Counted from the first letter of the stretch, positions 4,240 through 33,312 are shown. The stretch is 55,769 nt of DNA from Candidatus Omnitrophota bacterium (GCA_022013205.1 JAKLQT010000198.1:1-55769); one strand, 5' to 3'. Program-made: numbers and translations. The notes: generated by a model not told the origin, from the sequence alone.

Positions 4240-4382
4240 ATCATTTTAGCCCCGCATATATATAGGATAAAAAAGTGAAAATTCTTTACTTCTTTAACGG
4301 CTTGTAATATCATAAGTTTTCTAACTTACTAATTATTAATTGGTTATCAAAATTACAACTATACAAAGGGACTTATTTGGTA

Positions 4383-12078: not shown

Positions 12079-13596
12079 ATGCTTATAACATTTATACATT
12101 CTGAATTACAGGCTCTAGGTATTGAGTATCTTTCGGCCATATTAAAAGCAAAAGGATATCGTACTGAATTTGTTGTTGATCCCTGTTTTCAGTTTCTAAA
12201 TAAGCAGGGGGCAATACTTAAATTCATGATGAGATTACGTAAAAAGATTGTTCAAAGTGTTTTGGATAAAAACCCGGCGATGGTTGCTTTTTCGGTTAAT
12301 GCCCGTAATGGACCATGGGCTCAAGAAATGGCGCGTGAGATTAAAAGCCTTTCTGATGTGCCGATTGTTTTCGGAGGGATTCAGCCCACATTGGTTCCGG
12401 AGGCTTTTTTAAGAGATGATGCTGTCGACTATGTTATTCGGGGAGAAGCAGATCTGATTTTTACCGAATTAATAAAGAGATTAGAGCAAAATCTACCGTT
12501 AGATAGTGTCGATGGCTTGGTTTATAAAAATAAAGGAAGAATGGTGTCTAATCCTTTGGGAGTACCTATTAGTGATCTCGACGCGCTTCCTTTTGCTGAT
12601 AAGGATATTTTACCGAATTGGTTTAATAAAAAACTATATCGTATTATCACCAGTAGAGGATGTCCAGGCCAATGTACATATTGCTGTGCTCCCATAATTA
12701 ATAAGCTTTACAGTGCTAATACTTCGTCTATTCGCCGGCGTTCATCTGGAAATGTTATCCGTGAACTTGAAGTTGCCCGGGAAAGGTTTAAAATAGAAAG
12801 GGTTTTTTTTGAGGACGATTTGTTCACCTTTGAATATGAATGGGTTGAACAATTTTCGCTTGAGTACAAACGGCGAATTAATCTTCCTTGTCTTGTTCAT
12901 GCAACTTTAAATACGCTTACTGAACCTATGATCAGGTTGCTGGAGCGGATGCAGTGTGTTATTGTTGAAGTGGGAGTGCAGAGCCTGAATCCTGTTATTC
13001 GCAGCGATATTCTAAAACGCTATTACTCCAATGATCAAATACGTGAGGTTATTAAATTGCTGCGCCAACATGGGATTTGCTGCCTTTGTGATAACATTAT
13101 AGGCCTGCCGAAGCAGAATGAAGGCGATCTGGTTAATATGGTAAAGTTTTATAATGAGCTTAGGCCGGGAAAAATTGAAATTCTTAAGCTGGAATATTAT
13201 CCGGGAGCGCCGATTGTTAAGCAGGCAGGGCTTTGTGAAAAAAAGCAGATGGCTCTTTGCCAAGGCCGGCTTATTGTCGCTTCGCAGGATAACCGGCATT
13301 GTATAAAAATGATGCAGCTTATCGGCCTATCGTATATTATGCCCAGGATGCTTATCAGTTTTTTATTGAAATATAAATTATATCGATGGTTCTTGCCGAT
13401 TTCTGATGTAAATCATTTTAATCAATTGATATATTATTGTTCGGCTGTGTTTCGTAAAGACAGGCGAAAAATATTAATTGGGCTGCGTTTGGATGTTGTT
13501 CATAAATTCCGCTACATTATGGAGAAGGTATTTAGAAACCAAAAGTGTAAACCTGATCTGCATAAAAAAAGGAGAACTCTCCTTCTAAGGGGATAG
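12079..13596 (+). CDS. Class B (B12-binding-domain) radical SAM enzyme
   Basis: N-terminus MLITFIHSELQALGIEYLSAILKAKGY resembles 24795 and 26393. IVFGGIQPT; rSAM motif ITSRGCPGQCTYCCA; VGVQS...GLPKQ. Confidence 0.85.
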   Translation: MLITFIHSELQALGIEYLSAILKAKGYRTEFVVDPCFQFLNKQGAILKFMMRLRKKIVQSVLDKNPAMVAFSVNARNGPWAQEMAREIKSLSDVPIVFGGIQPTLVPEAFLRDDAVDYVIRGEADLIFTELIKRLEQNLPLDSVDGLVYKNKGRMVSNPLGVPISDLDALPFADKDILPNWFNKKLYRIITSRGCPGQCTYCCAPIINKLYSANTSSIRRRSSGNVIRELEVARERFKIERVFFEDDLFTFEYEWVEQFSLEYKRRINLPCLVHATLNTLTEPMIRLLERMQCVIVEVGVQSLNPVIRSDILKRYYSNDQIREVIKLLRQHGICCLCDNIIGLPKQNEGDLVNMVKFYNELRPGKIEILKLEYYPGAPIVKQAGLCEKKQMALCQGRLIVASQDNRHCIKMMQLIGLSYIMPRMLISFLLKYKLYRWFLPISDVNHFNQLIYYCSAVFRKDRRKILIGLRLDVVHKFRYIMEKVFRNQKCKPDLHKKRRTLLLRG

Positions 13597-13825
13597 GCCC
13601 GGATTAAGTTACTTTTTAAAAAGCAGCCAGTATATTAAAACAAAATCGCTTGTTTATTTGAATATTAATACCATTTGTGATAACAGAAAAAGGGATTTTA
13701 AGATATGCAAAAATTGTATCTATAAACTTTTCTTTAAGACTGATGACGGACAACTGCGTTGTAGAGGAACCGGGGCAGATGTTAGCGATTGGCTTCTTAA
13801 TGAGTTTAAAGTGCCGAATAAGTAG
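13589..13825 (+). pseudogene. C-terminal remnant (about 78 codons) of a fifth Tes/MJ0619-like radical SAM paralogue
   Basis: A stop-to-stop frame reads GDRPGLSYFLKSSQYIKTKSLVYLNINTICDNRKRDFKICKNCIYKLFFKTDDGQLRCRGTGADVSDWLLNEFKVPNK*. It aligns residue for residue with the end of ORF 15503..16873 (KGLSFFKKNNRYLKTNSFIYLNVSTTCDNHKIDYKITRNCIFGMVFKGKDGILRFRGTGADMCDAL). There is no N-terminal part and no start codon. Confidence 0.75.
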
Positions 13826-13915
13826 ATAGAGATGTTTTTTAAGGGAAAAACAAGGGGATATAATTTGTTTTTAATAAATAATTCTGGTATTTATCTAAGG
13901 AAGGAATAAATAATA

Positions 13916-15493
13916 ATGAGAAAAAAACTGCTGTTTGTGCGATGCCCCAAGTATATGTGGCCGTGGGTTAATGAATCAGATAACTTTCTTCTGCCTTTGG
14001 GGCTTCCTGCGCTTGCCGCGAGCTTACGGGTTAACATTAAGGACCTTGAGGTGAAAATAATTGATTGTGCTCCTCTTAAGATCGGATGGGAGAGGCTTGC
14101 GCAAATGGTCAAAGAAGAAAACCCTGATTTTATCGGAGCAGGAGAAGAGGCATTATACCATCACGAAGCAGTCAAACTTTTTCAAATTGCTAAAGGATAT
14201 AACAAGCATGTAGTTACAATTGCCGGGGGCCATTATTTTTCCTGGATGGTTGAAAAAAGCCTCAGGGAGTATTCAGTGGATATCATCGTTCGTTTTGAAG
14301 GAGAAGAAACAATTGTCAGTCTTATGGATGCTTTGCTCAATAATCGGGATTTATCAACTGTCGAGGGGATAGCTTTTAAGCGCGGGGAACAGATTGTAAA
14401 GACTTCGCTGCGGCCCTATATTAAAAATCTCGACGATCTTCCTGTTCCGGCCTTTGATTTAATGCCGATGATGGATTACGCGAAAAAAGGTATTTTCTGG
14501 CCGGTTAGTGCGACGATTGAAGGTTCACGAGGGTGTATCGACACCTGCAGCTACTGCGCGTTGTGGACATATTGGGGAAACCAGAAAAAACATGATATCG
14601 AAAATGGAGAACTGGAGGTGACGCCGTTTTACAGGCAGAAGAGTGTGGCGCGTGTTATGGAAGAGGTGGACATCTTATGCCGCAAATATAAACGCCGCCT
14701 TTTACTATGGGCAGATCCTACTTTCAATGTAAATCCGAAATGGACTAATGAACTATGTGATGAGATTCTTAAGCGGGAGTATAAGGTTGAGCATTGGGTA
14801 TTTCTACGTGCTGATTTTGCCTTGCGCGACGCGAAACTGGGAGTTTTAGATAAAATGGTCCGGGCAGGTTTTGTCCATCCCTTGTTTGGTGTTGAAAGAA
14901 GCTGCGCTCAGGAGTGGACACAGCTTAAAAAGCACAACTATAAAAAAGATAGTGTTCGGGAAGTATTTCATATCCTTCGCGATAAACATCCTGAAGTTTT
15001 CAGGCAAGCTACATTTGTGACCTCTTTTCCTTTTGATACAGAGAAATCAATGATGAATTTAGCAAAGTACGCGATAGATATTGATTGTGATTTTCCGGTA
15101 TTTCATCCTATTACGCCAACCCCGGGAACCTATCTTTATGAAGATATGGTGAAAGAGAACTATCTGGAAGAAAAGGATCTTAAAGAGGCGTATTGGGAAT
15201 ATCCTCTGTTAAAAAATGACAATGGGCTTACACGGAAAAAAATGGCGGAAATTAATAGAAAAATTCAAATAATTTCTATTTTTTGTAATCCTAAGACACT
15301 ATTAAAAGGAATTTTTTCGCCTTATGCTGGTAAACGTTTTAGATATCGTGAAGTTTTAAGAACACTTTTTTTAAAAGTTATGGCAATAATTTCGCTTATT
15401 TTTAAGGAGAAGGTATTAAGAAGGAAAAATAAGGGGCCGATACCGCGTTCACTTTTTTTTATTTTAGAGAAACCGGAATGGTATGATAGCTGA
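13916..15493 (+). CDS. Class B (B12-binding-domain) radical SAM enzyme
   Basis: B12-domain-like N-terminus (LLFVRCPKY..., VTIAGGHYFS). rSAM motif EGSRGCIDTCSYCALW; FGVERS. Confidence 0.85.
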   Translation: MRKKLLFVRCPKYMWPWVNESDNFLLPLGLPALAASLRVNIKDLEVKIIDCAPLKIGWERLAQMVKEENPDFIGAGEEALYHHEAVKLFQIAKGYNKHVVTIAGGHYFSWMVEKSLREYSVDIIVRFEGEETIVSLMDALLNNRDLSTVEGIAFKRGEQIVKTSLRPYIKNLDDLPVPAFDLMPMMDYAKKGIFWPVSATIEGSRGCIDTCSYCALWTYWGNQKKHDIENGELEVTPFYRQKSVARVMEEVDILCRKYKRRLLLWADPTFNVNPKWTNELCDEILKREYKVEHWVFLRADFALRDAKLGVLDKMVRAGFVHPLFGVERSCAQEWTQLKKHNYKKDSVREVFHILRDKHPEVFRQATFVTSFPFDTEKSMMNLAKYAIDIDCDFPVFHPITPTPGTYLYEDMVKENYLEEKDLKEAYWEYPLLKNDNGLTRKKMAEINRKIQIISIFCNPKTLLKGIFSPYAGKRFRYREVLRTLFLKVMAIISLIFKEKVLRRKNKGPIPRSLFFILEKPEWYDS

Positions 15494-15502
15494 GGTACAA
15501 GG

Positions 15503-16873
15503 ATGAATCCTGAAAAACTAACTGATGTAACTGTAATTAGAAAAACAAAAAGCCGATGTGTTGAATGTGGAAAGATTGTCGATGCAAGCGTTTTGCAAAG
15601 ACAAGGTAAAATATTTCTGGAGAAAAAATGCCCGGTTCATGGGGATATGCGGGTGCTTCTTTCTGAATGTCCTCAATACTATAAAAAATTGGATTCATAT
15701 TTTTTTTCAGTAACTCCGGATGAATTGAAACGCTGGGCAATGGAAATTGATATTACGTTTCGTTGTAATATGAAATGCCCAATTTGCGCGTGGGGCAATG
15801 ATTTTAGACAGAAAATGTCTCAATTCCCTGAACCGACGATTGAAGAAATTGTTAATTTTTCAAAAAAAAATAAAATTAAAACCGTTCGTCTTTCCGGAGG
15901 TGAACCTACCTGCCGCGATGACCTGGTAGATATTGTTAGAGCTCTTAAGGCTATAAACAAAAGAGTGATAATTAATACAAATGGGGTTAAGCTTCATGAT
16001 TATGATTATGTTTCGAATCTTTATGATGCCGGGGTCGATACAATTAATGTTACCTTTGATGGATTCAGCAGAGAAACAGAGGTGTTTTTAAGAGGGGATG
16101 ATTATTTGCCTTATAAGCTAAAGGCCTTGGATAATCTAAAAACAATGCGAATACCTACAGGCCTGAATATCCGTATAATGAAAGGAATGAATGAGAATCA
16201 GATTAGTAAAATCATTGATTACGCGGTTGCGAATGACCATATAAAACTGTTAAGTTTCGGAACAGTTGGCTGGGTGGGTAACGCGCGTAATTGGCCCGAT
16301 GATAAATATTTTATGCCGGACCAGTTAATTGATGCTATTACTCAGCAGACAGGCAATCAAATCAGGCGTGAAAGTTTTTATCTGTTTCAAAAATTGTTTA
16401 TCGCGGTTGGTTCTTTTTTTAATCAGCGGTGGTGTTTTTATGATTCGGCATCTATTATGCTTTTAAAAGAAAAGGGAACGTACGAGACAGTTGATAAATA
16501 TATTGATTTACGGAAAATTGAACGGTACCTGGATTCTTACGTGCGATTATATAAACGGAATATTTTCATGGCTAAACTTTATTTATTTTTTGCGGGTATT
16601 CTGAGCATAAGACATATAAGGTCAACCAGGTTGCTAAAAGAACTTATGGGTAAAGGCTTGAGTTTTTTTAAAAAAAACAATAGGTACCTCAAGACAAATT
16701 CTTTTATATACCTCAACGTTAGTACTACTTGTGATAATCATAAGATTGATTATAAGATAACCCGGAATTGTATATTTGGGATGGTGTTTAAAGGTAAAGA
16801 CGGGATTCTAAGGTTTCGGGGTACAGGAGCAGACATGTGTGATGCCTTAAATAACGGGCCTCTTCCATTATAA
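15503..16873 (+). CDS. Radical SAM enzyme with N-terminal zinc-ribbon, Tes/GDGT-MAS (MJ0619)-like, paralogue 1
   Basis: CVECGK...(20 aa)...CPVHGD zinc-ribbon; rSAM motif ITFRCNMKCPICAW; LSGGEPTCRDDL; TNGVKL; VTFDGFS; hydrophobic helix MAKLYLFFAGILSI; C-terminal C-D...D...C motif (TTCDNHKIDYKITRNC). Confidence 0.8.
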   Translation: MNPEKLTDVTVIRKTKSRCVECGKIVDASVLQRQGKIFLEKKCPVHGDMRVLLSECPQYYKKLDSYFFSVTPDELKRWAMEIDITFRCNMKCPICAWGNDFRQKMSQFPEPTIEEIVNFSKKNKIKTVRLSGGEPTCRDDLVDIVRALKAINKRVIINTNGVKLHDYDYVSNLYDAGVDTINVTFDGFSRETEVFLRGDDYLPYKLKALDNLKTMRIPTGLNIRIMKGMNENQISKIIDYAVANDHIKLLSFGTVGWVGNARNWPDDKYFMPDQLIDAITQQTGNQIRRESFYLFQKLFIAVGSFFNQRWCFYDSASIMLLKEKGTYETVDKYIDLRKIERYLDSYVRLYKRNIFMAKLYLFFAGILSIRHIRSTRLLKELMGKGLSFFKKNNRYLKTNSFIYLNVSTTCDNHKIDYKITRNCIFGMVFKGKDGILRFRGTGADMCDALNNGPLPL

Positions 16874-16916
16874 AATTTAAAAATTAAAATTGGAATAGAA
16901 AAAAGAAAGCGGTGAA

Positions 16917-18266
16917 ATGCAAGTAAGAGCACAGGAAGACTACAAAATTATCAGGGAAACCCAAAGCATTTGTACTCAATGTTATTCAACTATTAAGGCA
17001 AGTATCGTTGAAAGAAATGATCATGTGTTTTTGCGTAAGGAGTGCTCTGAACATGGTATTTTTGAAGTTCCTTTTGCTTTTAACTCTGAGTTCTATAGAT
17101 TTTTTCAGGAAAAAAGTTTGCCGTTTATGTGCGGGATGCAGTCGCAGTCTGAAATAGAAATTGTTGTTACTTACCGGTGTAATATGCGCTGCCCAATCTG
17201 TTATTGGCAGAAACATAAAGATAAATATGAACAGGTTGAACCCTCTTTAGAAGAATTGGAGCAGTTCATCAGTAAGTATAGAAAAAAAACCTGGCGATTT
17301 ACGCTTACAGGCGGGGAGCCGACTTTGAGAGATGATCTGCCGGAGATTATCTCTATGCTGAAGAAACACGGTAAAGGGATATCAATTAATAGCAACGGCT
17401 TGCGTTTAGCGGATTTTGCCTATGCTCAATCCCTTAAAAGAGCTGGAATTGATAGAGTGAATATGCAGCTTGACGGATTTGATGAGGAAATCGAACGCTA
17501 TATGCGCGGGGATGATTACCGGGCTACTAAACAAAAAGCGCTTAATAATCTTAAGGAGCTTAATATCTGTACCGGAATAAACGCTGTAATTTCCCGTGAT
17601 TACGGGAAAAATCAAATCAGCCAATTGATTGATTTTGCCCTAAAGCATGAATTTATAAAATCAATAACCTGGCTTAGCCTGGTTTATCCCGCGGGCAAAG
17701 AGAAATATAACCCGAAGAATTTTATTATGGCTAATGAGGTTCTTGATTTTATACAAGAGGAGACAAAGGGAAAAATCACAAAACACAATTTTTTGATTCT
17801 CCGTAAACTATATTTGCTTGCCGCGTATTGTTTTTCCCGGGGATGTTGCCGTTACAGTTATATGTATATGTTAATAAGGAAGCAGGGGCATTATGAAGGA
17901 ATAGACAGGTATCTTGATTTAAAAAAAATAAACAAGTTTCTGGACATATGTCAGGGGGTTTTAATAAAGAATAAACTTTTAGGAAAAATATTTTTTCTAA
18001 GTGCTATGCCTGTTGTTCTACTTGTTTGTTTTCGCTCTGTTTCCTTGTTGAAAGAGTTCTTTTGTCGAGGGGTATCTTTTTACCTGCGCGGGAGTTCTTA
18101 TCTTAAACCTATTAATTTTCTCGATTTCAGGGTGGTTACAATATGTGATATAAACAATTTTGACTCTGTCGGAAAACAGTGCTGTTTTGGGATTGCTTTG
18201 AAAGATGATAAAGGGTTATATCGAGATACGATTAGAAATGTTAATCTAAAAATATCTACTTCTTGA
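16917..18266 (+). CDS. Tes/GDGT-MAS (MJ0619)-like radical SAM enzyme, paralogue 2
   Basis: CTQCYS...CSEHGI; VVTYRCNMRCPICYW; LTGGEPTLRDDL; SNGLRL; MQLDGFD; C-terminal ICDINNFDSVGKQCC. Confidence 0.8.
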   Translation: MQVRAQEDYKIIRETQSICTQCYSTIKASIVERNDHVFLRKECSEHGIFEVPFAFNSEFYRFFQEKSLPFMCGMQSQSEIEIVVTYRCNMRCPICYWQKHKDKYEQVEPSLEELEQFISKYRKKTWRFTLTGGEPTLRDDLPEIISMLKKHGKGISINSNGLRLADFAYAQSLKRAGIDRVNMQLDGFDEEIERYMRGDDYRATKQKALNNLKELNICTGINAVISRDYGKNQISQLIDFALKHEFIKSITWLSLVYPAGKEKYNPKNFIMANEVLDFIQEETKGKITKHNFLILRKLYLLAAYCFSRGCCRYSYMYMLIRKQGHYEGIDRYLDLKKINKFLDICQGVLIKNKLLGKIFFLSAMPVVLLVCFRSVSLLKEFFCRGVSFYLRGSSYLKPINFLDFRVVTICDINNFDSVGKQCCFGIALKDDKGLYRDTIRNVNLKISTS

Positions 18267-18296
18267 AACAGGTGATAAAAGTATAGGTAAAAAAAT

Positions 18297-19688
18297 ATGA
18301 CAAATCAGATATTATCCGATAAAAAGGAAAGACAAATTTTGCGAAAAACAGAAGGTGTTTGTGAGCATTGCGGTAATAGGGTCGATGCGTTCATGGTCAA
18401 AATAGGCGAGGATATCTTTTTTGAAAAGCATTGCCCGGAACATGGTATATGCTGTGTACGTATAGCGTTCAGTAAATATTACGAGGGATTGGAAAAGTTT
18501 TATTTCTCAATTACTGAGAAAAAAGAATATTGTAGTGTGGAAATGGTGGAACTGGTAGTCAGCTTCTCTTGTAATATGAATTGCCCGGTATGTTATCTGG
18601 GTGATTTCACTAAGACGTTAAAGGATTATAACCCTACTCTCCAGGAGATAGAACGTTTTCTCAAAACAACACAGCATAGGGCCTTGGTGATTTCCGGAGC
18701 TGAAGCAACCTGCAGAGAAGACCTGTGTGATATTATTAAATTACTTAAGTCTTATGGCAAAACAGTAAGTTTGAATACAAACGGTATTAAACTCACGGAT
18801 TTTGAATATGTCAGCCGGTTAAAAAATGCCGGCCTTGACCGTGTCAATATGCAGTTTACAGGATTTTCAAGTGAAGCCGAAATAACTTTACGCGGGAATG
18901 ATTATATTGAAAAAAAACTTCAGGCACTTGAAAATCTAAGGAAGCTAAATGTTTCAACCGGACTTAATGTCCTGATTGCCGGGGGATTGAATGATAGTCA
19001 GATCGGCAGGATAATAGAATTCGCAGCTAAAAATAAAAATATTAAAATGGTCAATTTAAGCACAATGATATTTGTAGGCAACACAAAAGATTATCCGCGA
19101 TCATACTATCTAATGCCTGATGATATTATTCAGTTTGTAGAAGATCAAACTAAACAAAGCATAAAACCTAATAACGTCTATATTTTTAAAAAACTGGAAA
19201 TTGTAATTTCATCATTCCTGAATAAAAATACCTGTCTTTATCATCAGGGATATGTTTTAGTAAGAAAAGACGGAGGTATTCGTCCAATAGATTATTATGT
19301 TGATTTAGGAAAAATTGAGCCTTACTTAGATAAATATCAGAAGTTATATTTAAGAAACATTGTATTGGCAAAGCTGTATTTGCTCTCAGTGTCTTTGCTT
19401 ATTGCAATCAGGCATGTAAAGATTTTTAAAGCAGCGGGTGAGTTGGTTAGGTATTTCGGCTCATATTTTTTTAACAGGGATTATTTTTTGAACCCAACGA
19501 GTTTGATGACCCTTGTATTTTCAGTTGAATGCGATTATTTACGTAAAGACTATACTATGTACGGGAAGAACTGTCCCTGCAAAGCTGTTTTTTTTGCCAA
19601 GTACTCGAATGGTAAGATAGTAACCGATAGCAGTGCGCATGAGGATACATACTGGTTTCTTTGGAGAAAAAAGAAAACTAAGACATGA
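18297..19688 (+). CDS. Tes/GDGT-MAS (MJ0619)-like radical SAM enzyme, paralogue 3
   Basis: CEHCGN...CPEHGI; VVSFSCNMNCPVCYL; ISGAEATCREDL; TNGIKL; MQFTGFS; C-terminal ECDYLRKDYTMYGKNCPC. Confidence 0.8.
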   Translation: MTNQILSDKKERQILRKTEGVCEHCGNRVDAFMVKIGEDIFFEKHCPEHGICCVRIAFSKYYEGLEKFYFSITEKKEYCSVEMVELVVSFSCNMNCPVCYLGDFTKTLKDYNPTLQEIERFLKTTQHRALVISGAEATCREDLCDIIKLLKSYGKTVSLNTNGIKLTDFEYVSRLKNAGLDRVNMQFTGFSSEAEITLRGNDYIEKKLQALENLRKLNVSTGLNVLIAGGLNDSQIGRIIEFAAKNKNIKMVNLSTMIFVGNTKDYPRSYYLMPDDIIQFVEDQTKQSIKPNNVYIFKKLEIVISSFLNKNTCLYHQGYVLVRKDGGIRPIDYYVDLGKIEPYLDKYQKLYLRNIVLAKLYLLSVSLLIAIRHVKIFKAAGELVRYFGSYFFNRDYFLNPTSLMTLVFSVECDYLRKDYTMYGKNCPCKAVFFAKYSNGKIVTDSSAHEDTYWFLWRKKKTKT

Positions 19689-19832
19689 AAAAACTTACCT
19701 GTGTTTATTGAAAAAGTGGGGTTTTAGATGATTGGCTGCTTTTTTGTGCAAAAAGATAACCATGGAAAAATTACGTATGCTTTATTATGTAGGGTAACTA
19801 AAAAGAATTAAAGGGGGCAAGGAAAAACAAAA

Positions 19833-20876
19833 ATGAGAAACGGATTGCTTCTACATGTTCCTAAAAATCGTCATTATCTATATCCTTTTCGTACGGTAAG
19901 CTTTATCTCGTATATGCCTATAGGGCTGATATCAATAGCAGCATATGCGTCTGATAATGGATTTCCGACAAAGATTATTAATCTGGGACTAGAAAAAGTA
20001 CTTGATAAAAACTATGACATTGCAGATGATATTAAAAATGAGCATACTCGGATTATAGGGATTTCATTGCATTGGCATCATAGCGCGTATGATGTGATCG
20101 AAACCGCGAAATATATTAAAAGCAGGTTTAATGATGTGTTTATTGTCCTGGGAGGATACACGGCTTCTTTCTTCTGGCAGGAAATAATGGAAGAATATAA
20201 ATGTGTTGATGGTGTTATTAAAGGTGACGGTGAAGTGCCTTGGCTTGAACTGCTTCGTCAAGTCGAAAAAGATGGAGATTTAAGCGTAGTGCCTAATCTT
20301 GCCTGGCGCGGAAATGGTATGATAGGTTTAAACCAGTGTTCGTTTATTGTTAAGGAAAAATTTTTTAATTCGTGTGCGTATACCCGTTTTCATCTTGTTA
20401 AAAATTATCGCTATTTACCCGGAATTCTTTTTGTGTTTTTTGCCCAGAGGCAATCCTTAAACAAAATGATCCTGGAAAGAAGATTTAAAACACAATTTTT
20501 CCTGCCTGTTTCCAGGGGGTGTACATCAGATTGTGGTTTTTGCGGAGGTGCGTGTATTACGCAGAGAATGATTGCAAATCGAGACGGCTTTATTAAATTG
20601 TCTCCGCGAACCTTATTTTTGCATACTCAGAAAGCGGTGAGATTCGGGTATACGCATATCCATTTTTTGTTTTGTTCATATGTCAAAGAAGAATATATAT
20701 TGGAGATATTGAACGAATTTAAGAAAAATAAGTTTAAGCCAAAGATGATTTTTGAGTTTCTCAAAGCGTTGCCCCATGATCGTTTCCTTAGTGAATTTGT
20801 AAAGGTTTTTGACCCTGAATCTCGAATATTGCTAGCGGTCCATACCTTTGATAAAAAATACCGTAGAAAATATTGA
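19833..20876 (+). CDS. Class B radical SAM enzyme, N-terminal 347 codons, ended by an in-frame TGA (see next feature)
   Basis: B12-domain-like N-terminus (IIGISLHWHHS, IVLGGYTAS) and rSAM motif PVSRGCTSDCGFCGG. The ORF stops at TGA 20874-20876, where paralogues continue. Confidence 0.75.
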   Translation: MRNGLLLHVPKNRHYLYPFRTVSFISYMPIGLISIAAYASDNGFPTKIINLGLEKVLDKNYDIADDIKNEHTRIIGISLHWHHSAYDVIETAKYIKSRFNDVFIVLGGYTASFFWQEIMEEYKCVDGVIKGDGEVPWLELLRQVEKDGDLSVVPNLAWRGNGMIGLNQCSFIVKEKFFNSCAYTRFHLVKNYRYLPGILFVFFAQRQSLNKMILERRFKTQFFLPVSRGCTSDCGFCGGACITQRMIANRDGFIKLSPRTLFLHTQKAVRFGYTHIHFLFCSYVKEEYILEILNEFKKNKFKPKMIFEFLKALPHDRFLSEFVKVFDPESRILLAVHTFDKKYRRKY

Positions 20877-21416
20877 AAATCAGAGCTGAGTAATGAGAGG
20901 ATTAAGCAGTTCATTTGTTCAGCAAAGGCATGTGGAGTTAACGCGGCTTTGTTTATGAGTGATGCTCTTGTAAACACTACTAAAAAAGAAAGAAAGATAT
21001 CTTTGGCATTTGAAAGGCACTTAAAACGTTTCAATAAACGTATTAAATTTTTCAGGACAACACTCTTAAACGAAGTGGACCCGGGATCTCCTGTTTTTTT
21101 GAATCCTGAGCCGTATCGTGTCAGGTTATCGCGTAGACATTTTAAGGATTTTTACCTGGACCATAGCAGACAAAAATCAAGTTTTGGTTTTAAGAATAGT
21201 GAAAACACTGCTTCTTGTAAACAACAGATTTTTGTATATACAAGAGGGTTATATGCCTTGTTTTTTTATTGGTTAATTGTTTTTCCTTTTTTTGAACTTT
21301 TTCTTAAGTGTTACATATTAATTTGCAATAAAAGACATATCAAAAAAAACTATTTAGTGAAAAGGCGATCAGGCTCAAGGGGGATTAGCACCTATGAGTT
21401 CAAAAGGATAAACTGA
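20877..21416 (+). CDS. Continuation of the same reading frame: C-terminal part of the interrupted class B radical SAM gene (ORF track 20949..21416)
   Basis: Same frame as 19833..20876 (both starts are divisible by 3). Translation after the TGA reads KSELSNERIKQFICSAKACGVNAALFMSD...LLNEVDPGSPVFLNPEPYRV. This aligns with the ...KQIENAFYLTHKAGIQSIANCMFGLPGET...PRPGSEFYE region of 4383..5777. Its stop overlaps the next ATG (TGATG at 21414-21418). Confidence 0.6.
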   Translation, partial: KSELSNERIKQFICSAKACGVNAALFMSDALVNTTKKERKISLAFERHLKRFNKRIKFFRTTLLNEVDPGSPVFLNPEPYRVRLSRRHFKDFYLDHSRQKSSFGFKNSENTASCKQQIFVYTRGLYALFFYWLIVFPFFELFLKCYILICNKRHIKKNYLVKRRSGSRGISTYEFKRIN

Positions 21417-22474
21417 TGCGGGAAAGAATTGAAAATTCATCTTCTTTTATTGGAGTAAAAGAACGAAAAGCGCTAAATGCGGTTTTGAAGAGCAATTTTT
21501 TAGCTGAAGGGCCTCAAACGGAGAAGTTTGAGCGTGAATTTGCTGAGTATATCGGATGTCGTTTTGCGATCGCGGTAAGTTCAGGAACAACCGCTTTGCA
21601 TTGTGCGTTGATAGCCTTGGGTGTAGGCGTTGGTGATGAGGTGCTAGCGCCTAACTATACCTGTCGTTCTATTCTCAACGCGGTTCAATATGCTAATGCT
21701 AAGCCAGTTCTTTGCGACGTTGATAAGAGGACTTTTAATATTTTACCCCAGGAAGCTTGTAAAAAGAAAACCTCAAGGACTAAAGCGGTTATCATCGCTC
21801 ATATGTTTGGCTGTCCTGCTTCGGTTAAAGAATTTCGTAAAATTGGAGTTCCGATTATTGAAGATTGTGCTCAGAGCATAGGCGCTGAGTATAATGGAAA
21901 ACTGGCGGGCAGTTTTGCCGATATGGCAATATTCTCTTTTGAAGGGACAAAGACAATTACTACCGGAGAAGGGGGGATGGTTACCACGAATTCTGCCCGG
22001 TTAAAGAAGCGTTTTGATGCTATAAAGGAGCCTTACGGAAAAGATTTTATGCCTAAATATACCTATCGAATGAGTGATCTTCAGGCAGCGGTCGGCTGTG
22101 TCCAAATAAAAAGGCTGCCGGAATTTATCCGAAGAAGAGAACAAATCGCCAGGCAATATATGAATGCTTTTGGTAATGATGAAAGAGTTCAGCTTCCATT
22201 TATCCCAAAAGGCGCGCGGCATACTTTTCATCGTTTTATTCTTACTCTAAAGGAGCCAAACTTAGACCAGTGTCTTAGAAAATGCCAAAAAAAAGGAGTT
22301 ATGGTCAAAAGAGCGATTAAGCCGTATGTGCTTAATCAGTATCTGAATATTTCTGATAGAGCCTTCCCCAATACTCAATATATAATGAAGCATTGTGCTT
22401 CTGTACCGATTTATCCTGCGCTTAAAAACCAGGATGTTAAAAAGGTAATAGATGCCCTAAAGGGGGCATTATGA
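21416..22474 (+). CDS. DegT/DnrJ/EryC1/StrS-family PLP-dependent sugar aminotransferase/dehydratase
   Basis: FEREFAEYIG..FAIAVSSGTTALHCALIALGVGVGDEV..PNYTC...; active-site lysine context FSFEGTKTITTGEGGMVTT; MSDLQAAVG. Confidence 0.85.
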   Translation: MRERIENSSSFIGVKERKALNAVLKSNFLAEGPQTEKFEREFAEYIGCRFAIAVSSGTTALHCALIALGVGVGDEVLAPNYTCRSILNAVQYANAKPVLCDVDKRTFNILPQEACKKKTSRTKAVIIAHMFGCPASVKEFRKIGVPIIEDCAQSIGAEYNGKLAGSFADMAIFSFEGTKTITTGEGGMVTTNSARLKKRFDAIKEPYGKDFMPKYTYRMSDLQAAVGCVQIKRLPEFIRRREQIARQYMNAFGNDERVQLPFIPKGARHTFHRFILTLKEPNLDQCLRKCQKKGVMVKRAIKPYVLNQYLNISDRAFPNTQYIMKHCASVPIYPALKNQDVKKVIDALKGAL

Positions 22475-23433
22475 AAATGATTCAGGGTAAATACGGCTTT
22501 AGAGATCAGCGTGAACAGCAGTTTCCCCTGATGGTTTGCCTGGAAATAACAAATGTGTGCAATTTGCGCTGTATTCATTGTCCTTATTCAGAAATTTCAA
22601 AACGCGAGGGATATATCCCTGAATTTATGGAATGGCTTGAGGCGAAAAAGGTCATTGATGATATAGCTGTTTTCCCTGATACAATAGTGCGTTTTGTTTG
22701 TGACGGTGAGCCGATGATGCATCCTGATTTTATGCAAATTGCCGAATATGCTAAAAAAAGCGGGATTGAGTCAATAGGAGTTACAACAAACGGAATGTTC
22801 TTAAATGAGGATAAGGCAAAAAAACTAGTTAAATTAAACTGTGATATTATAGAGGTTAGTATCGATGCTCTTCATAAAAGTACTTATGAGAAGATCAGGC
22901 GAGGAGGCGATTTTGATCTGGTCATTAAAAACACATCAAAATTGATAGAACTGCGTGATATTTTGAATAAAAAGGTAAAAATCATAGTAAGCATCATCGA
23001 TCAGCCTGATGTCAGCCATGAAATAGAGGAGTTTAAAAAGTACTGGCAGGGCAAAGCGGATAAGGTGCTAATTAGAAAGCTGACAAGCATCGGCGGCCTG
23101 GTGGACAACATAAGCGGGGAAAATAAAAAGACAAGTGCTGTATCGAGATGGCCGTGCCCTTTATTATGGAGAAGAATGTTCATTAATGTCGGCGGGCTTG
23201 CTGAATTTTGTGTTGATGACTGGCTTGATGAATCGGTTGTCGGCGATGCGCGCAAAGAGAGCCTGAGGGAGATCTGGAACTGCCAGGCGTATCAGCAATT
23301 GCGGCATGCGCATTTAAAAAAGGAATTCAGCCTTAATAAAAAATGTGAATTTTGCGTTGACTGGCCGGCAAGGACATGGGAATGTGATTATTTAAGCGCT
23401 TTGGAATCTTTGGGGATTAAAAAGTATGAATGA
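22471..23433 (+). CDS. Radical SAM enzyme with SPASM/twitch-like C-terminal domain
   Basis: LEITNVCNLRCIHCPY; CDGEPMMHPD. C-terminal WPCPLLWRRMFINVGGLAEFCVDDW...KKCEFCVDW. The ATGA overlap with the upstream DegT gene suggests translational coupling. Confidence 0.85.
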   Translation: MKMIQGKYGFRDQREQQFPLMVCLEITNVCNLRCIHCPYSEISKREGYIPEFMEWLEAKKVIDDIAVFPDTIVRFVCDGEPMMHPDFMQIAEYAKKSGIESIGVTTNGMFLNEDKAKKLVKLNCDIIEVSIDALHKSTYEKIRRGGDFDLVIKNTSKLIELRDILNKKVKIIVSIIDQPDVSHEIEEFKKYWQGKADKVLIRKLTSIGGLVDNISGENKKTSAVSRWPCPLLWRRMFINVGGLAEFCVDDWLDESVVGDARKESLREIWNCQAYQQLRHAHLKKEFSLNKKCEFCVDWPARTWECDYLSALESLGIKKYE

Positions 23434-24793
23434 TTTTTCTGATTGCCGGATAATATATGAGACAAAGGGATTATGCCCGGTTTGCTGCCAGTGGGTTGAT
23501 GCTCAGGCAATTGAAAATTGCGGTAAGGTTTTTTTGCGGAAAACTTGCCCTGAACATGGCCAATCAGACCTGTTGATATGCGGCGATGCTTCATCTTTTC
23601 GGCAGTTAAGAGAGGCTTATCTTATAACCCATAATGAAATATTCCCCCAGTCACGTTATTTGCTGTATTTAACCCCTGTTTGTAATATGTCATGCCCGAT
23701 ATGTTTTTTGAGCCGGCAGAAAGATCAAAAGCAGGATATTACTCTTGAAGAGCTTAATAAAACTTTATCAACGCCAAAGAGGGAACTTATCCTGTTTGGG
23801 GCAGAACCTACCTGCCGTGAGGATCTGCCCCAAATAATTGAGTTTCTCAAAAGAAGACAATTTTCGGTTAGTTTATACACTAATGGGCTGAATTTGTCTG
23901 ATTTAGAATATGCCAAAGTAATCAAAGCGGCAAATGTGGATAAGATTTATTTTCAATTTGACAGTTTTAATGATGAAGTATATGAGAAGCTGCGGCAGAA
24001 AAAGTTATTGGATATAAAAAATAAAGCATTAAACAATCTGAAATTATTAGATATTCCGGTAGTTTTGGACATTACTGTAGTAAATGATTTGAACGATCAT
24101 GAAGTGGGCAAGATCTTTGATTTTGCCTGCAGGCAAAATCATATAAGCGCTCTGAATTTTATCGCTTATGTGCGCTCCGGAGGCGGTAGTGAGTTTCTAA
24201 ATGATAATGTGTTAATGCCGGATGATATCATCAAGCGCATAGGGGATTACACGCAGGGCAGGATAAATCGTGATAAAATCAAGGTATATCAAAAGCTCCT
24301 ATATATTTATATGTCGATATTAAAACGCCGTACGTGTTTTTATATCCAGTATTTCTGGGTGTATCGCAGGGATGAGGGCGAATATCTTACACTTGATGAG
24401 ATTATTGATTTTGGAAAACTTGATAATGTGCTGGACGGATATCTCAGGCTTGCCCCTAAAACAGGGAAGATGTTTGCGATCGCATACCTGGTTTTTAAAT
24501 CACCAGTCCTTTTATTTGCCCTTAAACAGAGACGGATATGTTTTGAAATGTTCAGGATGGCATTCGCGCACAGCTTTAATAAGGCAGAGTATGCGAAGAA
24601 AAGCAGTAAATTTCTGCAGCTTATTTTCACAACCGCATGCGATCCTTATAAGTCTGATATAAATATTGCTAAACGCTGCCATGTGGGAATGATCTACAAA
24701 AATGATCAGGGTGAGCTCAAAATAGATGATGAAAACGGGATGTACTTATTGCAAGAAGAGATAAACAGTAAAATAATGTCAGGTAAAATATAA
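23426..24793 (+). CDS. Tes/GDGT-MAS (MJ0619)-like radical SAM enzyme, paralogue 4
   Basis: CPVCCQ...CPEHGQ; LTPVCNMSCPICFL; LFGAEPTCREDL; TNGLNL; FQFDSFN; C-terminal ACDPYKSDINIAKRCH. Confidence 0.8.
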   Translation: MNDFSDCRIIYETKGLCPVCCQWVDAQAIENCGKVFLRKTCPEHGQSDLLICGDASSFRQLREAYLITHNEIFPQSRYLLYLTPVCNMSCPICFLSRQKDQKQDITLEELNKTLSTPKRELILFGAEPTCREDLPQIIEFLKRRQFSVSLYTNGLNLSDLEYAKVIKAANVDKIYFQFDSFNDEVYEKLRQKKLLDIKNKALNNLKLLDIPVVLDITVVNDLNDHEVGKIFDFACRQNHISALNFIAYVRSGGGSEFLNDNVLMPDDIIKRIGDYTQGRINRDKIKVYQKLLYIYMSILKRRTCFYIQYFWVYRRDEGEYLTLDEIIDFGKLDNVLDGYLRLAPKTGKMFAIAYLVFKSPVLLFALKQRRICFEMFRMAFAHSFNKAEYAKKSSKFLQLIFTTACDPYKSDINIAKRCHVGMIYKNDQGELKIDDENGMYLLQEEINSKIMSGKI

Positions 24794-24794
24794 T

Positions 24795-26396
24795 ATGCGT
24801 GTCGGATTTGTTTACTCAGAAATGGAAACCCTGGGCGTTGAACATCTCTCCAGCTATCTTAAAGAGCAGGGACATCAGACCACCTTATTCTTTGATCCTC
24901 AGTTATTTAATGATACGGTTTCCCGCAGTAATGCCTTTAGCCGGATATTTGGCTATCAGAAAAGGCTTATAAGGCAGATCATTGAATGGAAACCGGAGAT
25001 TCTGGCATTTTCGGTATTAAGCACGAATTATTTATGGGCGAAAAATTTGGCCCAACAGATAAAATGTGTAATGGATATCCCTATTGTTTGGGGAGGTATT
25101 CACCCTACATTGTCGCCGGAATCCGTCATCGAGCTTGATTTTGTTGACTTTGTCGTTGTGGGCGAGGGGGAACAGGTATTACTTGAGCTGGTAGAAAACC
25201 TCGGTAGTGAAAAACGGCTGCAAACCACAGCTAATCTATGGTCAAAAAAAGACGAAATTATATTCCGCAATGCCGTAAGGCCGCTTATTGACGATCTGGA
25301 TTCGCTGCCTTTTCCTGATAAAGGTATGTTTTACAGCACTATGCCTTATTTGAGCAGGCATTACACGATTGTAACAAGCCGCGGGTGCCCGCATATGTGT
25401 ACTTTTTGCTGTAATCACACATTAAGCAATCTAAGCGGGGGAAAAGAAAAGTTTTTACGGCGCAGATCCGCGGAAAATGTTATCGCCGAGCTTAAGCAGG
25501 CTCAGGAGCGTTATAAAATTGAAGATGTATTCTTTGATGATAGTACGTTTACTTATGATAAAAATTGGCTGAAATTATTTTCACAATTATATAAAAAACA
25601 TATTAATCTGCGCTGTTTTTGCTGGGTTTATCCCGCGGAGGTCGATGAAGAAACAGTGCGCTATTTAATTGATATGAATATCCAGGCAGTGGAAATGGGG
25701 GTAGAATCTTTAAACCCGCATGTTAGGAAAAAATGGCTGCGCAGGCCTCATTCTAATAAAAAGATCCAAAACGCGCTCGCTCTTTTTAAGAAAAACAGGA
25801 TATTTGTTACTGTAGATAATATCGTGGGATTACCGGAAGAGACAATAAACGACTTGGAGCATATGGCAGATTTCTATAACCGCACGCGCCCGGAAAAAAT
25901 CTACATTTTTGAATTAAGGCCTTTCCCTAATACAGATATGTTTACTTTATATTCTGAGTATAAGAAGAATTATAGCGCTGACAATAAGGAACTGCTGCCA
26001 TTTACTCTGTCTTCAACAAGCAATAAGGCCTATAAGCAGATAACCGCGCTTGTTTGCCTGATCCATCTTCTTCCTGTAAAGGCGGTTAAAATGCTGCTTG
26101 CTAAAAAATGGTACCGCAAATTACCGGCAATAGACATGTATAATCTTTTAGAAATAGTGCCTTTTTTTATTAATTTTTTAAAGCCGGCAAAACATAAGAG
26201 ATGGTTTCCTATAAGAGGTACGCGGCACAGATATTTCTTCTTCGGGAGTAAGATTGTCAGGGAGTTTCTTCTAAGTATTTCTTCAGATAAACTGTTAAAA
26301 AAAATAAGATCATTTTTTCTCTTGATTAAAGGCGAAAAAAAATATTCTGTTATCCAAAATAAACCATCAGGCAATGTCACGGGAGTTGATAAATGA
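24795..26396 (+). CDS. Class B (B12-binding-domain) radical SAM enzyme
   Basis: MRVGFVYSEMETLGVEHLSSYLKEQGH...; IVWGGIHPT; VVGEGE; rSAM motif VTSRGCPHMCTFCCN; MGVESL; GLPEET. Confidence 0.85.
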   Translation: MRVGFVYSEMETLGVEHLSSYLKEQGHQTTLFFDPQLFNDTVSRSNAFSRIFGYQKRLIRQIIEWKPEILAFSVLSTNYLWAKNLAQQIKCVMDIPIVWGGIHPTLSPESVIELDFVDFVVVGEGEQVLLELVENLGSEKRLQTTANLWSKKDEIIFRNAVRPLIDDLDSLPFPDKGMFYSTMPYLSRHYTIVTSRGCPHMCTFCCNHTLSNLSGGKEKFLRRRSAENVIAELKQAQERYKIEDVFFDDSTFTYDKNWLKLFSQLYKKHINLRCFCWVYPAEVDEETVRYLIDMNIQAVEMGVESLNPHVRKKWLRRPHSNKKIQNALALFKKNRIFVTVDNIVGLPEETINDLEHMADFYNRTRPEKIYIFELRPFPNTDMFTLYSEYKKNYSADNKELLPFTLSSTSNKAYKQITALVCLIHLLPVKAVKMLLAKKWYRKLPAIDMYNLLEIVPFFINFLKPAKHKRWFPIRGTRHRYFFFGSKIVREFLLSISSDKLLKKIRSFFLLIKGEKKYSVIQNKPSGNVTGVDK

Positions 26397-27841
26397 AAGT
26401 GGCTTTTGTTAATAATTCAAATGAGAGCCTAGGCGTGGAATATCTCTCGGCATATTTGAAGCAGCATGGGCATTGCGCGCAGGTGTTTGTCGATCCTCAA
26501 TTATTTAACGATGAAAATATTAGAGCTGAATTTTTGCATCGTTTTTTTGATTACAAAAAAAATCTTGCGCGGGATATTCTTGCATATTCCCCTGATATAA
26601 TCGGATTTTCCGTAGTAAGCGATTTCTATCCTTGGGCATGCCTTCTGGCCGAGGAGATCAAAAGAAATTGCAATATCCCGGTTATTTTCGGAGGCATTCA
26701 TCCGACCACAATGCCGCAGGAGGTTATTAATAACAGTTTCGTGGACATGATTTGTATAGGCGAAGGTGAACAGGCGCTTCTTGAGGTGGTTGAAAAATTA
26801 CAGGCAGGGGGGTGGCCGGATGAGGTAGCTAATATATGGGTAAAAAGCTCCGGAAAGATCAAAAGAAATGGCATAAGGCCGCTGATAAAGAATCTTGATT
26901 CATTGCCTTTTCCTGATAAGATATTATTCAGTGAAGCTGGCCCTCATTATGATATCGGCTATTTTACGATGGCCAGCCGGGGTTGTCTTTACCGATGTTC
27001 ATACTGTCATAATTCGTACCTGGGCAAGCTTTATAAAGAATATGATTACTATAGATACCGAAGCGTAGAAAACCTTATCAGTGAGCTGGAGGGCGGATTT
27101 TCGAAAAAAAAACACAGGATAATCCGGTTTTCTGACGATATATTTCCTTTTGAAAAACAATGGCTGAGTGAATTTTCTCTTAAATATCCTAAACGTATAG
27201 GAGCCCCGTTTATCTGCTATATACATCCTCAAACAACGGATGAAGAAACGATCAGTCTGCTTAAAAAAAGCGGCTGCTGCGAAGTTCAGATAGGAGTCCA
27301 GACCCTTTATGAACGAACTCAGAAAGCTGTTTTAAATCGCGATATAAAACAGGAAAGATGGGAGGATCTTATCAGCCAGATCAAAAAATGCGGCATGGCC
27401 ATTACCGCGGAGAATATAATCGGTATCCCCGGACAAAGTGAAAATGAAGTAAAGGATATGGTTAGATTCTATACGCGTAACCGTGTTAACCGGGTGCATA
27501 TATTCTGGCTGCGTTATTATCCTAAAACCGATATAAGTAATCGGTTTAAAGAGCATGATTCAGAGCATACGCAAAGGCCGTTTACAATGGGCGGAGATGT
27601 TTTTAAAAAGGAAATGGTAAAGTTAAGAATACTTTTTAGCCTGGCTCAACTTTTTCCAATGACTGTGATTGATTTTTTTCTCAAAAAAAGGGTTTATTAC
27701 TTTATGCCTGTTTGGCCGTTGTTCCTTATAAATATATTTTCCAATATCACAAGCGGCACATATTCAGATAAGATTACGCGCAGGAGAGAAAAAACAAAAT
27801 ATTTGTATTATATCAGGAAAAGATTATGGCAGAAAAACTGA
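26393..27841 (+). CDS. Class B (B12-binding-domain) radical SAM enzyme
   Basis: MKVAFVNNSNESLGVEYLSAYLKQHGH...; VIFGGIHPT; CIGEGE; rSAM motif MASRGCLYRCSYCHN; IGVQT; GIPGQS. Start overlaps the upstream stop (ATGA). Confidence 0.85.
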   Translation: MKVAFVNNSNESLGVEYLSAYLKQHGHCAQVFVDPQLFNDENIRAEFLHRFFDYKKNLARDILAYSPDIIGFSVVSDFYPWACLLAEEIKRNCNIPVIFGGIHPTTMPQEVINNSFVDMICIGEGEQALLEVVEKLQAGGWPDEVANIWVKSSGKIKRNGIRPLIKNLDSLPFPDKILFSEAGPHYDIGYFTMASRGCLYRCSYCHNSYLGKLYKEYDYYRYRSVENLISELEGGFSKKKHRIIRFSDDIFPFEKQWLSEFSLKYPKRIGAPFICYIHPQTTDEETISLLKKSGCCEVQIGVQTLYERTQKAVLNRDIKQERWEDLISQIKKCGMAITAENIIGIPGQSENEVKDMVRFYTRNRVNRVHIFWLRYYPKTDISNRFKEHDSEHTQRPFTMGGDVFKKEMVKLRILFSLAQLFPMTVIDFFLKKRVYYFMPVWPLFLINIFSNITSGTYSDKITRRREKTKYLYYIRKRLWQKN

Positions 27842-29801: not shown

Positions 29802-29820
29802 TAGGAGTGATCGGGTAATT

Positions 29821-33302: not shown

Positions 33303-33312
33303 AGAAGAGGAA

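Follow-up and report, generated by a model that had tools for sequence, protein, structure and literature searches.

The stretch of DNA analyzed here, referred to below as the window, is the 55.8-kb contig JAKLQT010000198.1 (55,769 nucleotides) from a Candidatus Omnitrophica metagenome-assembled genome (MAG; GCA_022013205.1). It encodes four open reading frames (ORFs), all on the plus strand, that resemble the archaeal tetraether lipid synthase Tes, also known as GDGT-MAS (MJ0619; PDB 7TOL/7TOM). The ORFs are named by their start positions (15503, 16917, 18297, and 23426), are intact, and share 31–38% pairwise identity. In each, a PF23545 HMPTM zinc ribbon (40.5–57.4 bits; gathering score 27 bits) precedes a PF04055 radical S-adenosylmethionine (SAM) domain (76.6–93.7 bits; gathering score 29.5 bits). 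HMPTM is the former name of MJ0619. The protein of ORF 15503 matches an NCBI MAG protein with 100% identity. Read from sequence and gene context, the four ORFs appear to be functional members of a distinct, uncharacterized sister clade of Tes/GDGT-MAS.

An initial annotation of the window had proposed that the four ORFs share one architecture, and all four were found with it. The C-x2-C-x20-C-(P/S)-x-H-G zinc-ribbon motif and the CNMxCP(I/V)C radical SAM motif were present in four of four. Its list of motifs was otherwise accurate for most positions and needed correction at three: GGEPT/GAEPT...R(D/E)DL reads GAEAT in ORF 18297, TNG reads SNG in ORF 16917, and (F/L)DGF or DSF reads FTGF in ORF 18297. 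The C-terminal C-D..(D)....C motif was recovered as C410-D411-x4-D416-x6-C423, with C410, D411, and C423 invariant and D416 nearly so among the 18 members used to build a subfamily profile. The late hydrophobic helix was located at residues ~349–373, where the best 19-residue Kyte–Doolittle window of each protein reached 1.54–2.32; the most hydrophobic helix was that of ORF 16917 (2.32). The CPxxCGxC auxiliary-cluster motif, described as missing, is indeed gone together with a ~20-residue insert of MJ0619. By Pfam, the Tes-like proteins have neither a SPASM nor an RRE domain, and no selenocysteine codon occurs in the four ORFs.

The one remnant described beside the four genes is real and somewhat longer than had been noted. 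By blastx, it aligned with 45% identity over 104 aa to residues 341–444 of an orthologue (P0004) of ORF 15503 and with 57% over 67 aa to ORF 15503 itself. There is an in-frame stop near position 13586, and the remnant overlaps the 3′ end of the gene at 12079–13596 in a different frame.

Relationship to Tes/GDGT-MAS

Single-sequence, profile, and structure comparisons all led to GDGT-MAS. A phmmer search scored 131 bits against 7TOL and 57 bits against MoaA. The 18-member profile scored 254 bits against 7TOL (E 2e-74), aligning profile positions 12–427 with chain residues 23–483, versus 76 bits against MoaA. E-values against GDGT-MAS span 1e-37 to 1e-74, which excludes chance similarity. An AlphaFold2 model of ORF 15503 (pLDDT 89.3, pTM 0.89) was compared with solved structures using Foldseek, as the initial annotation had suggested. 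The top match was 7TOL (E 2.6e-30; TM 0.77/0.71 over 470 columns), the only full-length matches were 7TOL and 7TOM, and the predicted fold retained the four domains of GDGT-MAS, minus the N-cluster domain. MoaA, BlsE, SkfB, viperin, and HydE matched the model over a ~220-residue core only (TM ~0.39), and MoaA models scored the four ORFs at 64–104 bits (cut-offs 231–325) with coverage of the core only. A closer affinity to MoaA-, PqqE-, or anSME-type radical SAM enzymes had been named beforehand as the result that would speak against kinship with Tes. Such a generic identity is rejected, because the full-length profile and fold matches go to 7TOL only. As judged from the profiles and the modeled fold, the ORFs are true full-length relatives of archaeal Tes.

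Membership in the curated equivalog families was a separate matter. The Tes model NF045702 (cut-off 450 bits) scored the four ORFs at 143.9–166.4 bits and distant members of their clade at 154–176 bits, while control sequences of the Tes type (P0033, P0049, and P0019) scored 650–677 bits; Tes membership is rejected. The TrsS radical SAM (seleno)protein model NF045646 (cut-off 490 bits) scored the ORFs at 146–172 bits, and TrsS membership is rejected as well. TrsS shares the PF23545 plus radical SAM superfamily with the window proteins and gives similar sub-threshold scores. Among the sequences compared, those closest to TrsS (311–425 bits) differ from the window proteins in having an N-terminal cluster and a different C-terminal cysteine pattern.

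In GDGT-MAS, a rubredoxin site is formed by C9, C12, C33, and H36, and an N-terminal auxiliary cluster by C73, C77, C80, and a histidine; the enzyme also has a radical SAM (RS) cluster and two hydrophobic lipid pockets (PMC9433317). Its C-terminal cluster has a labile ligand, Met439, and a conserved Tyr459 and is where the substrate radical is parked as a C–S bond; both residues are fully conserved across archaeal GDGT-MAS homologues (PMC9433317). The MJ0619 sequence was taken from the alignment of the subfamily profile to 7TOL, and its numbering matched every residue named in that study. Sites were compared in a MAFFT alignment of 165 full-length sequences.

Several features of Tes are kept. 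Eleven positions were invariant among the 18 members: C19, C22, C43, H46, C88, C92, C95, C311, C410, D411, and C423. Of these, C19, C22, C43, and H46 align with Tes C9, C12, C33, and H36, so the rubredoxin-type C-x2-C-x20-C-x2-H site is retained, as is the radical SAM CX3CX2C motif (C88, C92, and C95). The equivalents of the SAM-contact residues G145, D199, and R210 are largely conserved. In the C-terminal part, C311, C423, D411, and D416 correspond to C338, C455, D443, and D448 of Tes, preserving the D-x4-D-x6-C core, and the helical region with which Tes binds lipid is also present.

Other features are not kept. The [Fe4S4]N site is missing: the columns of C73, C77, and C80 were gapped in 82 of 82 sequences of the window type, and H83 is gone with the same insert. 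The linker from the zinc ribbon to the RS cluster is correspondingly 41–42 residues long in the window proteins versus 61–62 in Tes, and the whole proteins are ~450 aa long versus ~500. At the position of Met439, the four ORFs have S, V, S, or T, and at that of Tyr459, they have M, I, or A. Invariant C410 aligns with Tes Met442, which lies three residues away from the labile ligand Met439, and the third C-terminal cysteine of the Tes type, downstream of residue 463, is not conserved in the clade. Three invariant cysteines would remain to hold a site-differentiated C-terminal [4Fe-4S] cluster, with one ligand relocated. The helices corresponding to the lipid pockets are more hydrophobic than those of Tes (median best Kyte–Doolittle window of 1.45 in the clade versus 0.71), and a transmembrane-like threshold of 1.6 was reached by 39% of clade members versus 0% of Tes. 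The late hydrophobic helix is clade-specific. By the sequence tests run here, the ORFs are not Tes.

To place the ORFs among their relatives, 1.84 billion representative proteins were searched with the profile. This returned 1,038 clusters at 50% identity with E ≤ 1e-30, of which the top 150 all scored >226 bits. When the 165 full-length sequences were classified by features (absence of the N-cluster, a linker of 41 residues, and presence of the C-D motif), 82 were of the window type. A neighbor-joining tree from corrected p-distances on the same alignment gathered these 82 in one clade of 86 tips (95% pure), and a smaller N-cluster-less group with Tes-like cysteines sits between this clade and the Tes clade. 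The earlier reading of the ORFs as Tes/GDGT-MAS-like enzymes therefore stands with respect to specific kinship and to their separation as a subfamily without the N-terminal auxiliary cluster. Equivalence to Tes does not stand, given the missed cut-off, the substitutions at Met439, Tyr459, Gln268, and Arg275, and the genomic context described below.

Each paralogue has its nearest orthologues in a different lineage (P0002–P0006 for ORF 15503, P0014 for ORF 16917, P0121 for ORF 18297, and P0130 for ORF 23426), from which it follows that the duplications are ancient and that every copy has been maintained. Recent tandem duplication is rejected on the same grounds and by the low identity among the four.

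Species-representative genomes were searched with an alignment of 7 closer subfamily sequences. The clade occurs in many Omnitrophota, in Undinarchaeota, and in MAGs labeled Planctomycetales, Myxococcales/Kofleriaceae, Holophagae/Thermoanaerobaculales, and 'Rickettsiales', labels that are possibly unreliable. In classical archaeal Tes hosts, the match to the query was limited to the first ~290 residues. Tes-like proteins without the N-cluster were also seen in DPANN and Altiarchaeales MAGs (L034, L036, and L037 of Undinarchaeota, L039 of Woesearchaeota, and L041 of Altiarchaeales, the last with four copies). A regular-expression test of the L041 copies matched no C-terminal motif of either the C-D or the Tes type.

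Fusions were found within the clade. P0126 (950 aa) joins a B12-binding radical SAM enzyme to a Tes-like enzyme, and a 918-aa ORF (L013:9989-12742) strings two Tes-like units together in a single frame. N-terminal hemerythrin domains, which may serve as oxygen or iron sensors, are carried by P0158, P0170, and P0223, the last of which is additionally linked to a P-type ATPase.

Association with B12-domain radical SAM genes

The four Tes-like genes are interleaved with six genes for B12-domain radical SAM enzymes (4377, 12079, 13916, 19833, 24795, and 26393; Table 1). The class B flanks reported by the initial annotation are confirmed, at 12079, 13916, 19833 (interrupted), 24795, and 26393. The window also holds a MoaA-like radical SAM gene (10968), two radical SAM/SPASM genes (3229 and 22471), and a set of glycan and membrane genes: two DegT, a WbqC, two GT2, two DUF6541-like multi-pass proteins, and a Wzy_C protein. 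The GT2 and Wzy_C genes at 29764..32441 end the glycan-type block.

Table 1. Coordinates of genes and other features in the window.
Feature	Coordinates	Strand	Evidence
Multi-pass membrane protein (DUF6541)	1387..3003	+	PF20176 32 bits
Second radical SAM/SPASM enzyme	3229..4239	+	PF04055 + PF13186
B12-domain radical SAM, HpnJ/BchE/AprD4-like	4377..5777	+	HpnJ 235 bits full length (cut-off 578); BchE 201; AprD4 (6FD2) 85
Weaker DUF6541 match	5784-7394		
Unannotated protein with long hydrophobic stretches	9086-11014		
MoaA-like radical SAM, 344 aa	10968..12002	+	Pfam, NCBIfam
Class B (B12-binding) radical SAM	12079..13596	+	PF02310 + PF04055
Decayed C-terminal remnant of fifth Tes-like gene, ORF 15503 lineage	13493..13825 (approx.)	+	blastx
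Class B radical SAM, BchE-like	13916..15493	+	PF02310 + PF04055; BchE 162 bits
Tes-like radical SAM paralogue 1	15503..16873	+	456 aa; PF23545 + PF04055; 7TOL 131 bits; lineage P0002-P0006
Tes-like radical SAM paralogue 2	16917..18266	+	449 aa; PF23545 + PF04055; lineage P0014
Tes-like radical SAM paralogue 3	18297..19688	+	463 aa; PF23545 + PF04055; lineage P0121
Class B radical SAM, TIGR04190-like N-terminus, interrupted	19833..21416	+	In-frame TGA at 20874-20876
DegT-family sugar aminotransferase	21416..22474	+	PF01041 304 bits; conserved partner of SPASM radical SAM
Radical SAM/SPASM enzyme	22471..23433	+	PF04055 + PF13186
Tes-like radical SAM paralogue 4	23426..24793	+	455 aa; PF23545 + PF04055; lineage P0130
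Class B radical SAM	24795..26396	+	PF02310 + PF04055
Class B radical SAM	26393..27841	+	PF02310 + PF04055
Small GT2 glycosyltransferase	27826..28587	+	PF00535; weak ArnC, PpgS, dolichyl-P hexose transferase matches
DegT-family aminotransferase, ArnB/PseC-like	28584..29801	+	PF01041 415 bits; ArnB 355, PseC 349, both sub-cut-off
GT2	29764-30777	+	
Wzy_C/O-antigen-ligase-like membrane protein with TPR	30774-32441	+	
Complete dcw operon	33193-50399		Directly downstream of radical SAM/glycan block

The association with B12-domain enzymes separates the clade from Tes. Neighbors within ±10 kb were counted in 28 window-type loci of ≥12 kb and in 29 Tes-type loci, with genes in the fetched loci taken as simple ORF calls and neighbors assigned by best BLAST match to window proteins. 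Window-type loci had a mean of 3.32 B12-domain radical SAM neighbors versus 0.03 per Tes-type locus, and at least two such neighbors were found in 86% versus 0% of loci (p = 4e-11). B12-domain and MoaA-like radical SAM partners were kept in all phyla of the clade. The 4377 type was the one most consistently beside Tes-like genes across phyla, and ORF 4377 was the best match of most B12 neighbors in L017, L022, L025, L028, and L033. Homologues of the MoaA-like ORF 10968 stood beside a Tes-like gene in most loci outside Omnitrophota, with a median of one per window-type locus.

Gene order was also shared. A block of DegT, SPASM radical SAM, Tes-like, B12, B12, and GT2 genes recurs in L001, L002, L004, L013, and two ERZ contigs. 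This most conserved block is the one in which ORF 23426 sits, and the SPASM radical SAM gene was always directly downstream of DegT and upstream of the Tes-like gene in Omnitrophota-type loci. Loci in the syntenic set carried 4–6 Tes-like copies each. Order varied elsewhere; in L001, two Tes-like genes precede a 526-aa B12 gene.

Other loci of the clade add further families. These include PMT_2, AglB-core-like, and DUF2079 membrane glycosyltransferase-type proteins, YdjC, a MiaB-like radical SAM enzyme, a carbamoyltransferase, a processive GT2, and a PEMT/ICMT-type methyltransferase, along with weak GDSL-lipase-like and weak CMAS-like methyltransferase matches. The GT-C families among them (PMT_2, AglB-core-like, and DUF2079) occupy positions in L004, L005, and L035 comparable to those of the membrane proteins at 1387-3003, 5784-7394, and 9086-11014, which may be GT-C-like glycosyltransferases. 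Neither the window nor the sampled flanks showed a glycerolipid or ether-lipid gene, Ger/PlsA and Elb types included.

Peptidase_U32 genes recur beside the Tes-like/B12 clusters (L003:11469-12365; L035:18048-19136), and in a Kofleriaceae MAG, a PFL-like glycyl-radical enzyme adjoins the Tes-like gene (L033:11395-13938). The Peptidase_U32 family includes oxygen-independent hydroxylases such as UbiU/UbiV. Neighbors of both kinds would fit a strictly anoxic radical pathway. In another locus (L030:11376-21380), the ORF directly downstream of the Tes-like gene is 3,335 aa long as called, with a radical SAM/SPASM part followed by ~3,000 residues of TPR.

Clusters this rich in SPASM and class B radical SAM enzymes are typical of pathways for peptides that are made on the ribosome and modified after translation (RiPPs), and ApyD and RiPP C-methyltransferase models were among the weak matches of the B12 enzymes. 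Against a cluster of maturases acting on a ribosomal peptide, the search of the cluster turned up no small conserved ORF for a precursor, no protease, and no exporter; the intergenic ORFs in 500-1400 and 13500-14000 were short and unremarkable. With the Tes-like proteins also free of SPASM and RRE domains and with a glycan and membrane context that is consistent across loci, we set this reading aside as highly improbable.

The characterized relatives nearest to the partner enzymes act on sugars, cyclitols, or glycolipids: HpnJ, AprD4, ArnB, PseC, and perosamine/scyllo-inosose aminotransferases. The best solved relatives of DegT 21416 were sugar and scyllo-inosose aminotransferases, perosamine synthase, and ArnB, and GT2 27826 weakly resembled polyprenyl-phosphate sugar transferases. 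Searches of the SPASM radical SAM enzyme against solved structures returned no informative relative, with BtrN at just 25 bits. These partners raise the possibility that the cluster tailors sugars or aminocyclitols, on soluble nucleotide-sugars, for a surface glycan or an aminoglycoside-like metabolite, with no hydrocarbon-tail chemistry at all. BtrN and BtrS act in the order OH -> C=O -> NH2, and the DegT–SPASM pair recalls that logic, although through the same 25-bit match. The AprD4- and HpnJ-like B12 neighbors, the two DegT, the WbqC, the two GT2, and the Wzy_C in the window, and the carbamoyltransferase and processive GT2 elsewhere all agree with such a role. What argues otherwise is that the sole characterized relative of the Tes-like proteins is a lipid enzyme and that their pocket helices exceed those of Tes in hydrophobicity, being transmembrane-like in 39% of members. 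Outside Omnitrophota-type loci, moreover, the B12 and MoaA-like partners are kept but the glycan genes are not, and lipid-directed methyltransferase families appear in other loci. We consider purely soluble sugar chemistry rather unlikely.

Possible substrates and products

The safest statement is that the four ORFs belong to a distinct Tes-family clade that works with B12-domain radical SAM enzymes. Because they form a separate clade invariably set among B12-type radical SAM genes, the ORFs probably tailor a membrane-anchored glycolipid. We give a probability of about 0.5 to the full form of this reading, in which the locus would carry out oxygen-independent radical tailoring of a membrane-anchored glycolipid or lipid-linked glycan, with the Tes-like enzymes acting on the membrane-embedded part. 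It draws on the Tes fold, the coupling to B12 enzymes, the P0126 fusion, the synteny, the hydrophobic helices, and the sugar- and lipid-linked character of the partners.

The proposed steps would resemble those of Tes at the hydrophobic end of the substrate. Each Tes-like paralogue would bind the membrane-embedded hydrophobic part, and a 5′-deoxyadenosyl radical would abstract hydrogen from an unactivated sp3 carbon of that part. The resulting radical would be parked on a sulfide of the C-terminal cluster, as in Tes, before the paralogue completes a site-specific C–C (possibly C–S) bond. Changes to the sugar or cyclitol head, along with further modifications, would fall to the B12-type, SPASM, and aminotransferase enzymes.

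The hopanoid side-chain pathway offers a parallel. In that pathway, HpnH, HpnI, HpnJ, and HpnK carry out radical SAM and associated chemistry on a membrane-anchored glycolipid. Counterparts in the clade's loci include GT2 (HpnI-like), a YdjC deacetylase (HpnK-like, L004), the HpnJ-like ORF 4377 (235 bits), and the MoaA/HpnH-like radical SAM enzyme. The likeness has limits: all scores are below cut-off, the window has no squalene-hopene cyclase or other hpn gene, and the hpn pathway itself has no Tes-like enzymes.

Several observations weigh against glycolipid tailoring. DegT, GT2, and SPASM genes are kept only in Omnitrophota/Planctomycetales-type loci (median of 0 glycan genes over all window-type loci), so the 'glyco' part may be a lineage-specific decoration. 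The residues Q268 and R275 of the lid, invariant in Tes, and Y195 are not conserved in the clade, so the active site may suit a different, even polar, substrate. The partner assignments (HpnJ, AprD4, ArnB, and ArnC) are all sub-threshold similarities. Both the spatial clustering of C311, C410, and C423 and the hydrophobic tunnel are putative.

A stricter parallel to Tes would make the ORFs bacterial tetraether or membrane-spanning-lipid synthases that couple two alkyl tails end to end. Products would be of the branched glycerol dialkyl glycerol tetraether (brGDGT), diabolic-acid, or macrocycle type, with ring synthase, methylase, or desaturase roles for the B12 enzymes and a Gms-like cross-linking role for the SPASM enzyme. 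The full-length Tes fold, the putatively retained C-terminal cluster, and the very hydrophobic pocket helices are in keeping with this, and Holophagae/Thermoanaerobaculales, Myxococcota, and Planctomycetales MAGs are among those that carry the clade. Bacterial brGDGT routes are still unresolved (PMC11868695). The archaeal toolkit draws on the same enzyme classes (Tes, the SPASM/Twitch enzyme Gms, and the B12 enzymes Grs, Gmm, and Ted), and some bacteria have gms in a cluster with tes or mss (PMC11214058; bioRxiv 2025.10.20.683597). Against tail-to-tail coupling, the ORFs fall ~300 bits short of the Tes equivalog cut-off, which the controls exceed, and they lack Met439 and Tyr459 as well as conservation of the lid residues Q268 and R275. 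Archaea need one Tes for both C–C bonds, yet 4–6 ancient, diverged paralogues are kept here. The lack of glycerolipid, Ger/PlsA, or Elb-type genes in the window and sampled flanks, the sugar-directed relatives of the B12 neighbors, and the lack of B12 neighbors at true Tes loci point the same way. On balance, a strict tetraether synthase role seems possible but doubtful.

The archaeal GDGT toolkit (Grs, Gms, Gmm, Cgm/Pgm, and Ted), compared here by enzyme class, is similar in its clustered Tes-family, SPASM/Twitch, and several B12 radical SAM enzymes, all of which act on inert lipid tails without oxygen. It differs in that the window B12 enzymes are closest to HpnJ, BchE, and AprD4 and that sugar aminotransferases and glycosyltransferases are interleaved with them. 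From Tes itself, the clade is set apart not only by the missing N-cluster, the missing Met439/Tyr459, and the third C-terminal cysteine at the Met442 position but also by its 4–6 paralogues per genome and its ever-present B12 radical SAM neighbors. Mss of Thermotoga and Thermoanaerobacter, compared here by description only, is likewise of the radical SAM type and links lipid tails through C(sp3)–C(sp3) bonds in an anoxic setting. Its mechanism has been postulated to involve an auxiliary cluster (PMC13459092), and it is described as only remotely related to Tes (PMC13159169).

At its most ambitious, the block of Tes-like, B12, and MoaA-like radical SAM enzymes (and the SPASM enzyme) could be a complete oxygen-independent pathway for cross-linked, cyclized, and methylated membrane-spanning or polycyclic (glyco)lipids in Omnitrophota, other anaerobic bacteria, and some DPANN archaea, in which each ancient paralogue would install a different C–C bond. 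Such a pathway could be a bacterial counterpart of archaeal Tes/Grs/Gms/Gmm and might account for orphan brGDGT-type lipids, or for a wholly new lipid class. We regard this as speculative and unlikely as stated.

No other member of its family has been characterized besides Tes, through which a new type of C(sp3)–C(sp3) coupling by an enzyme came to light. What bacterial homologues of Tes do still awaits confirmation (PMC11868695, PMC13459092). From the present comparison emerges a large sister clade, with at least 82 of the 165 classified sequences, whose cofactor set is putatively altered and whose association with B12-domain radical SAM enzymes is obligatory. Stringent homology screens that map tetraether producers are likely to miss it, and the phylum lists of Tes-homologue carriers in a Black Sea survey do not include Omnitrophota. 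In phyla with barely known membranes, the clade offers concrete targets in the search for new anaerobic chemistry of lipids or glycolipids. Should its products be membrane-spanning lipids, they would bear on the unresolved sources of the branched GDGT biomarkers used in palaeoclimate work.

Interrupted genes and the adjoining dcw operon

The class B gene at 19833–21416 is interrupted by an in-frame TGA. Its product aligned end to end, in a single frame over 506 aa, with intact orthologues of ~505 aa in L002 and L003, and orthologues read Gly, Gly, and Asn at the TGA codon. Selenocysteine at this position is rejected because the orthologues carry these residues and not Cys, and recoding of TGA is rejected because TGA terminates 15 of 38 genes in the window. 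Either a nonsense mutation from GGA to TGA or an error in sequencing is the probable source of the codon.

An apparent frameshift was also seen in murE, which is essential. The ORF at 36487-37605 has the N-terminal and middle domains of a Mur ligase only, and the overlapping ORF at 37581-37964 holds Mur_ligase_C from profile position 29, the rest of the split gene (36487-37964). This suggests assembly or sequencing errors in the contig, so the TGA in the class B gene may be an artefact as well.

The dcw operon to which murE belongs begins immediately after the glycan-type block. Past its far end lies a further radical SAM gene (52562-53965) with an N-terminal Radical_SAM_N2 domain and no obvious link to the cluster. 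The operon encodes MraW, a penicillin-binding protein transpeptidase, Mur ligases (36487, 38008, and 41188), MraY, FtsW, and MurG, followed by a fourth Mur ligase (44802), MurB, Ddl, FtsQ, and FtsA.

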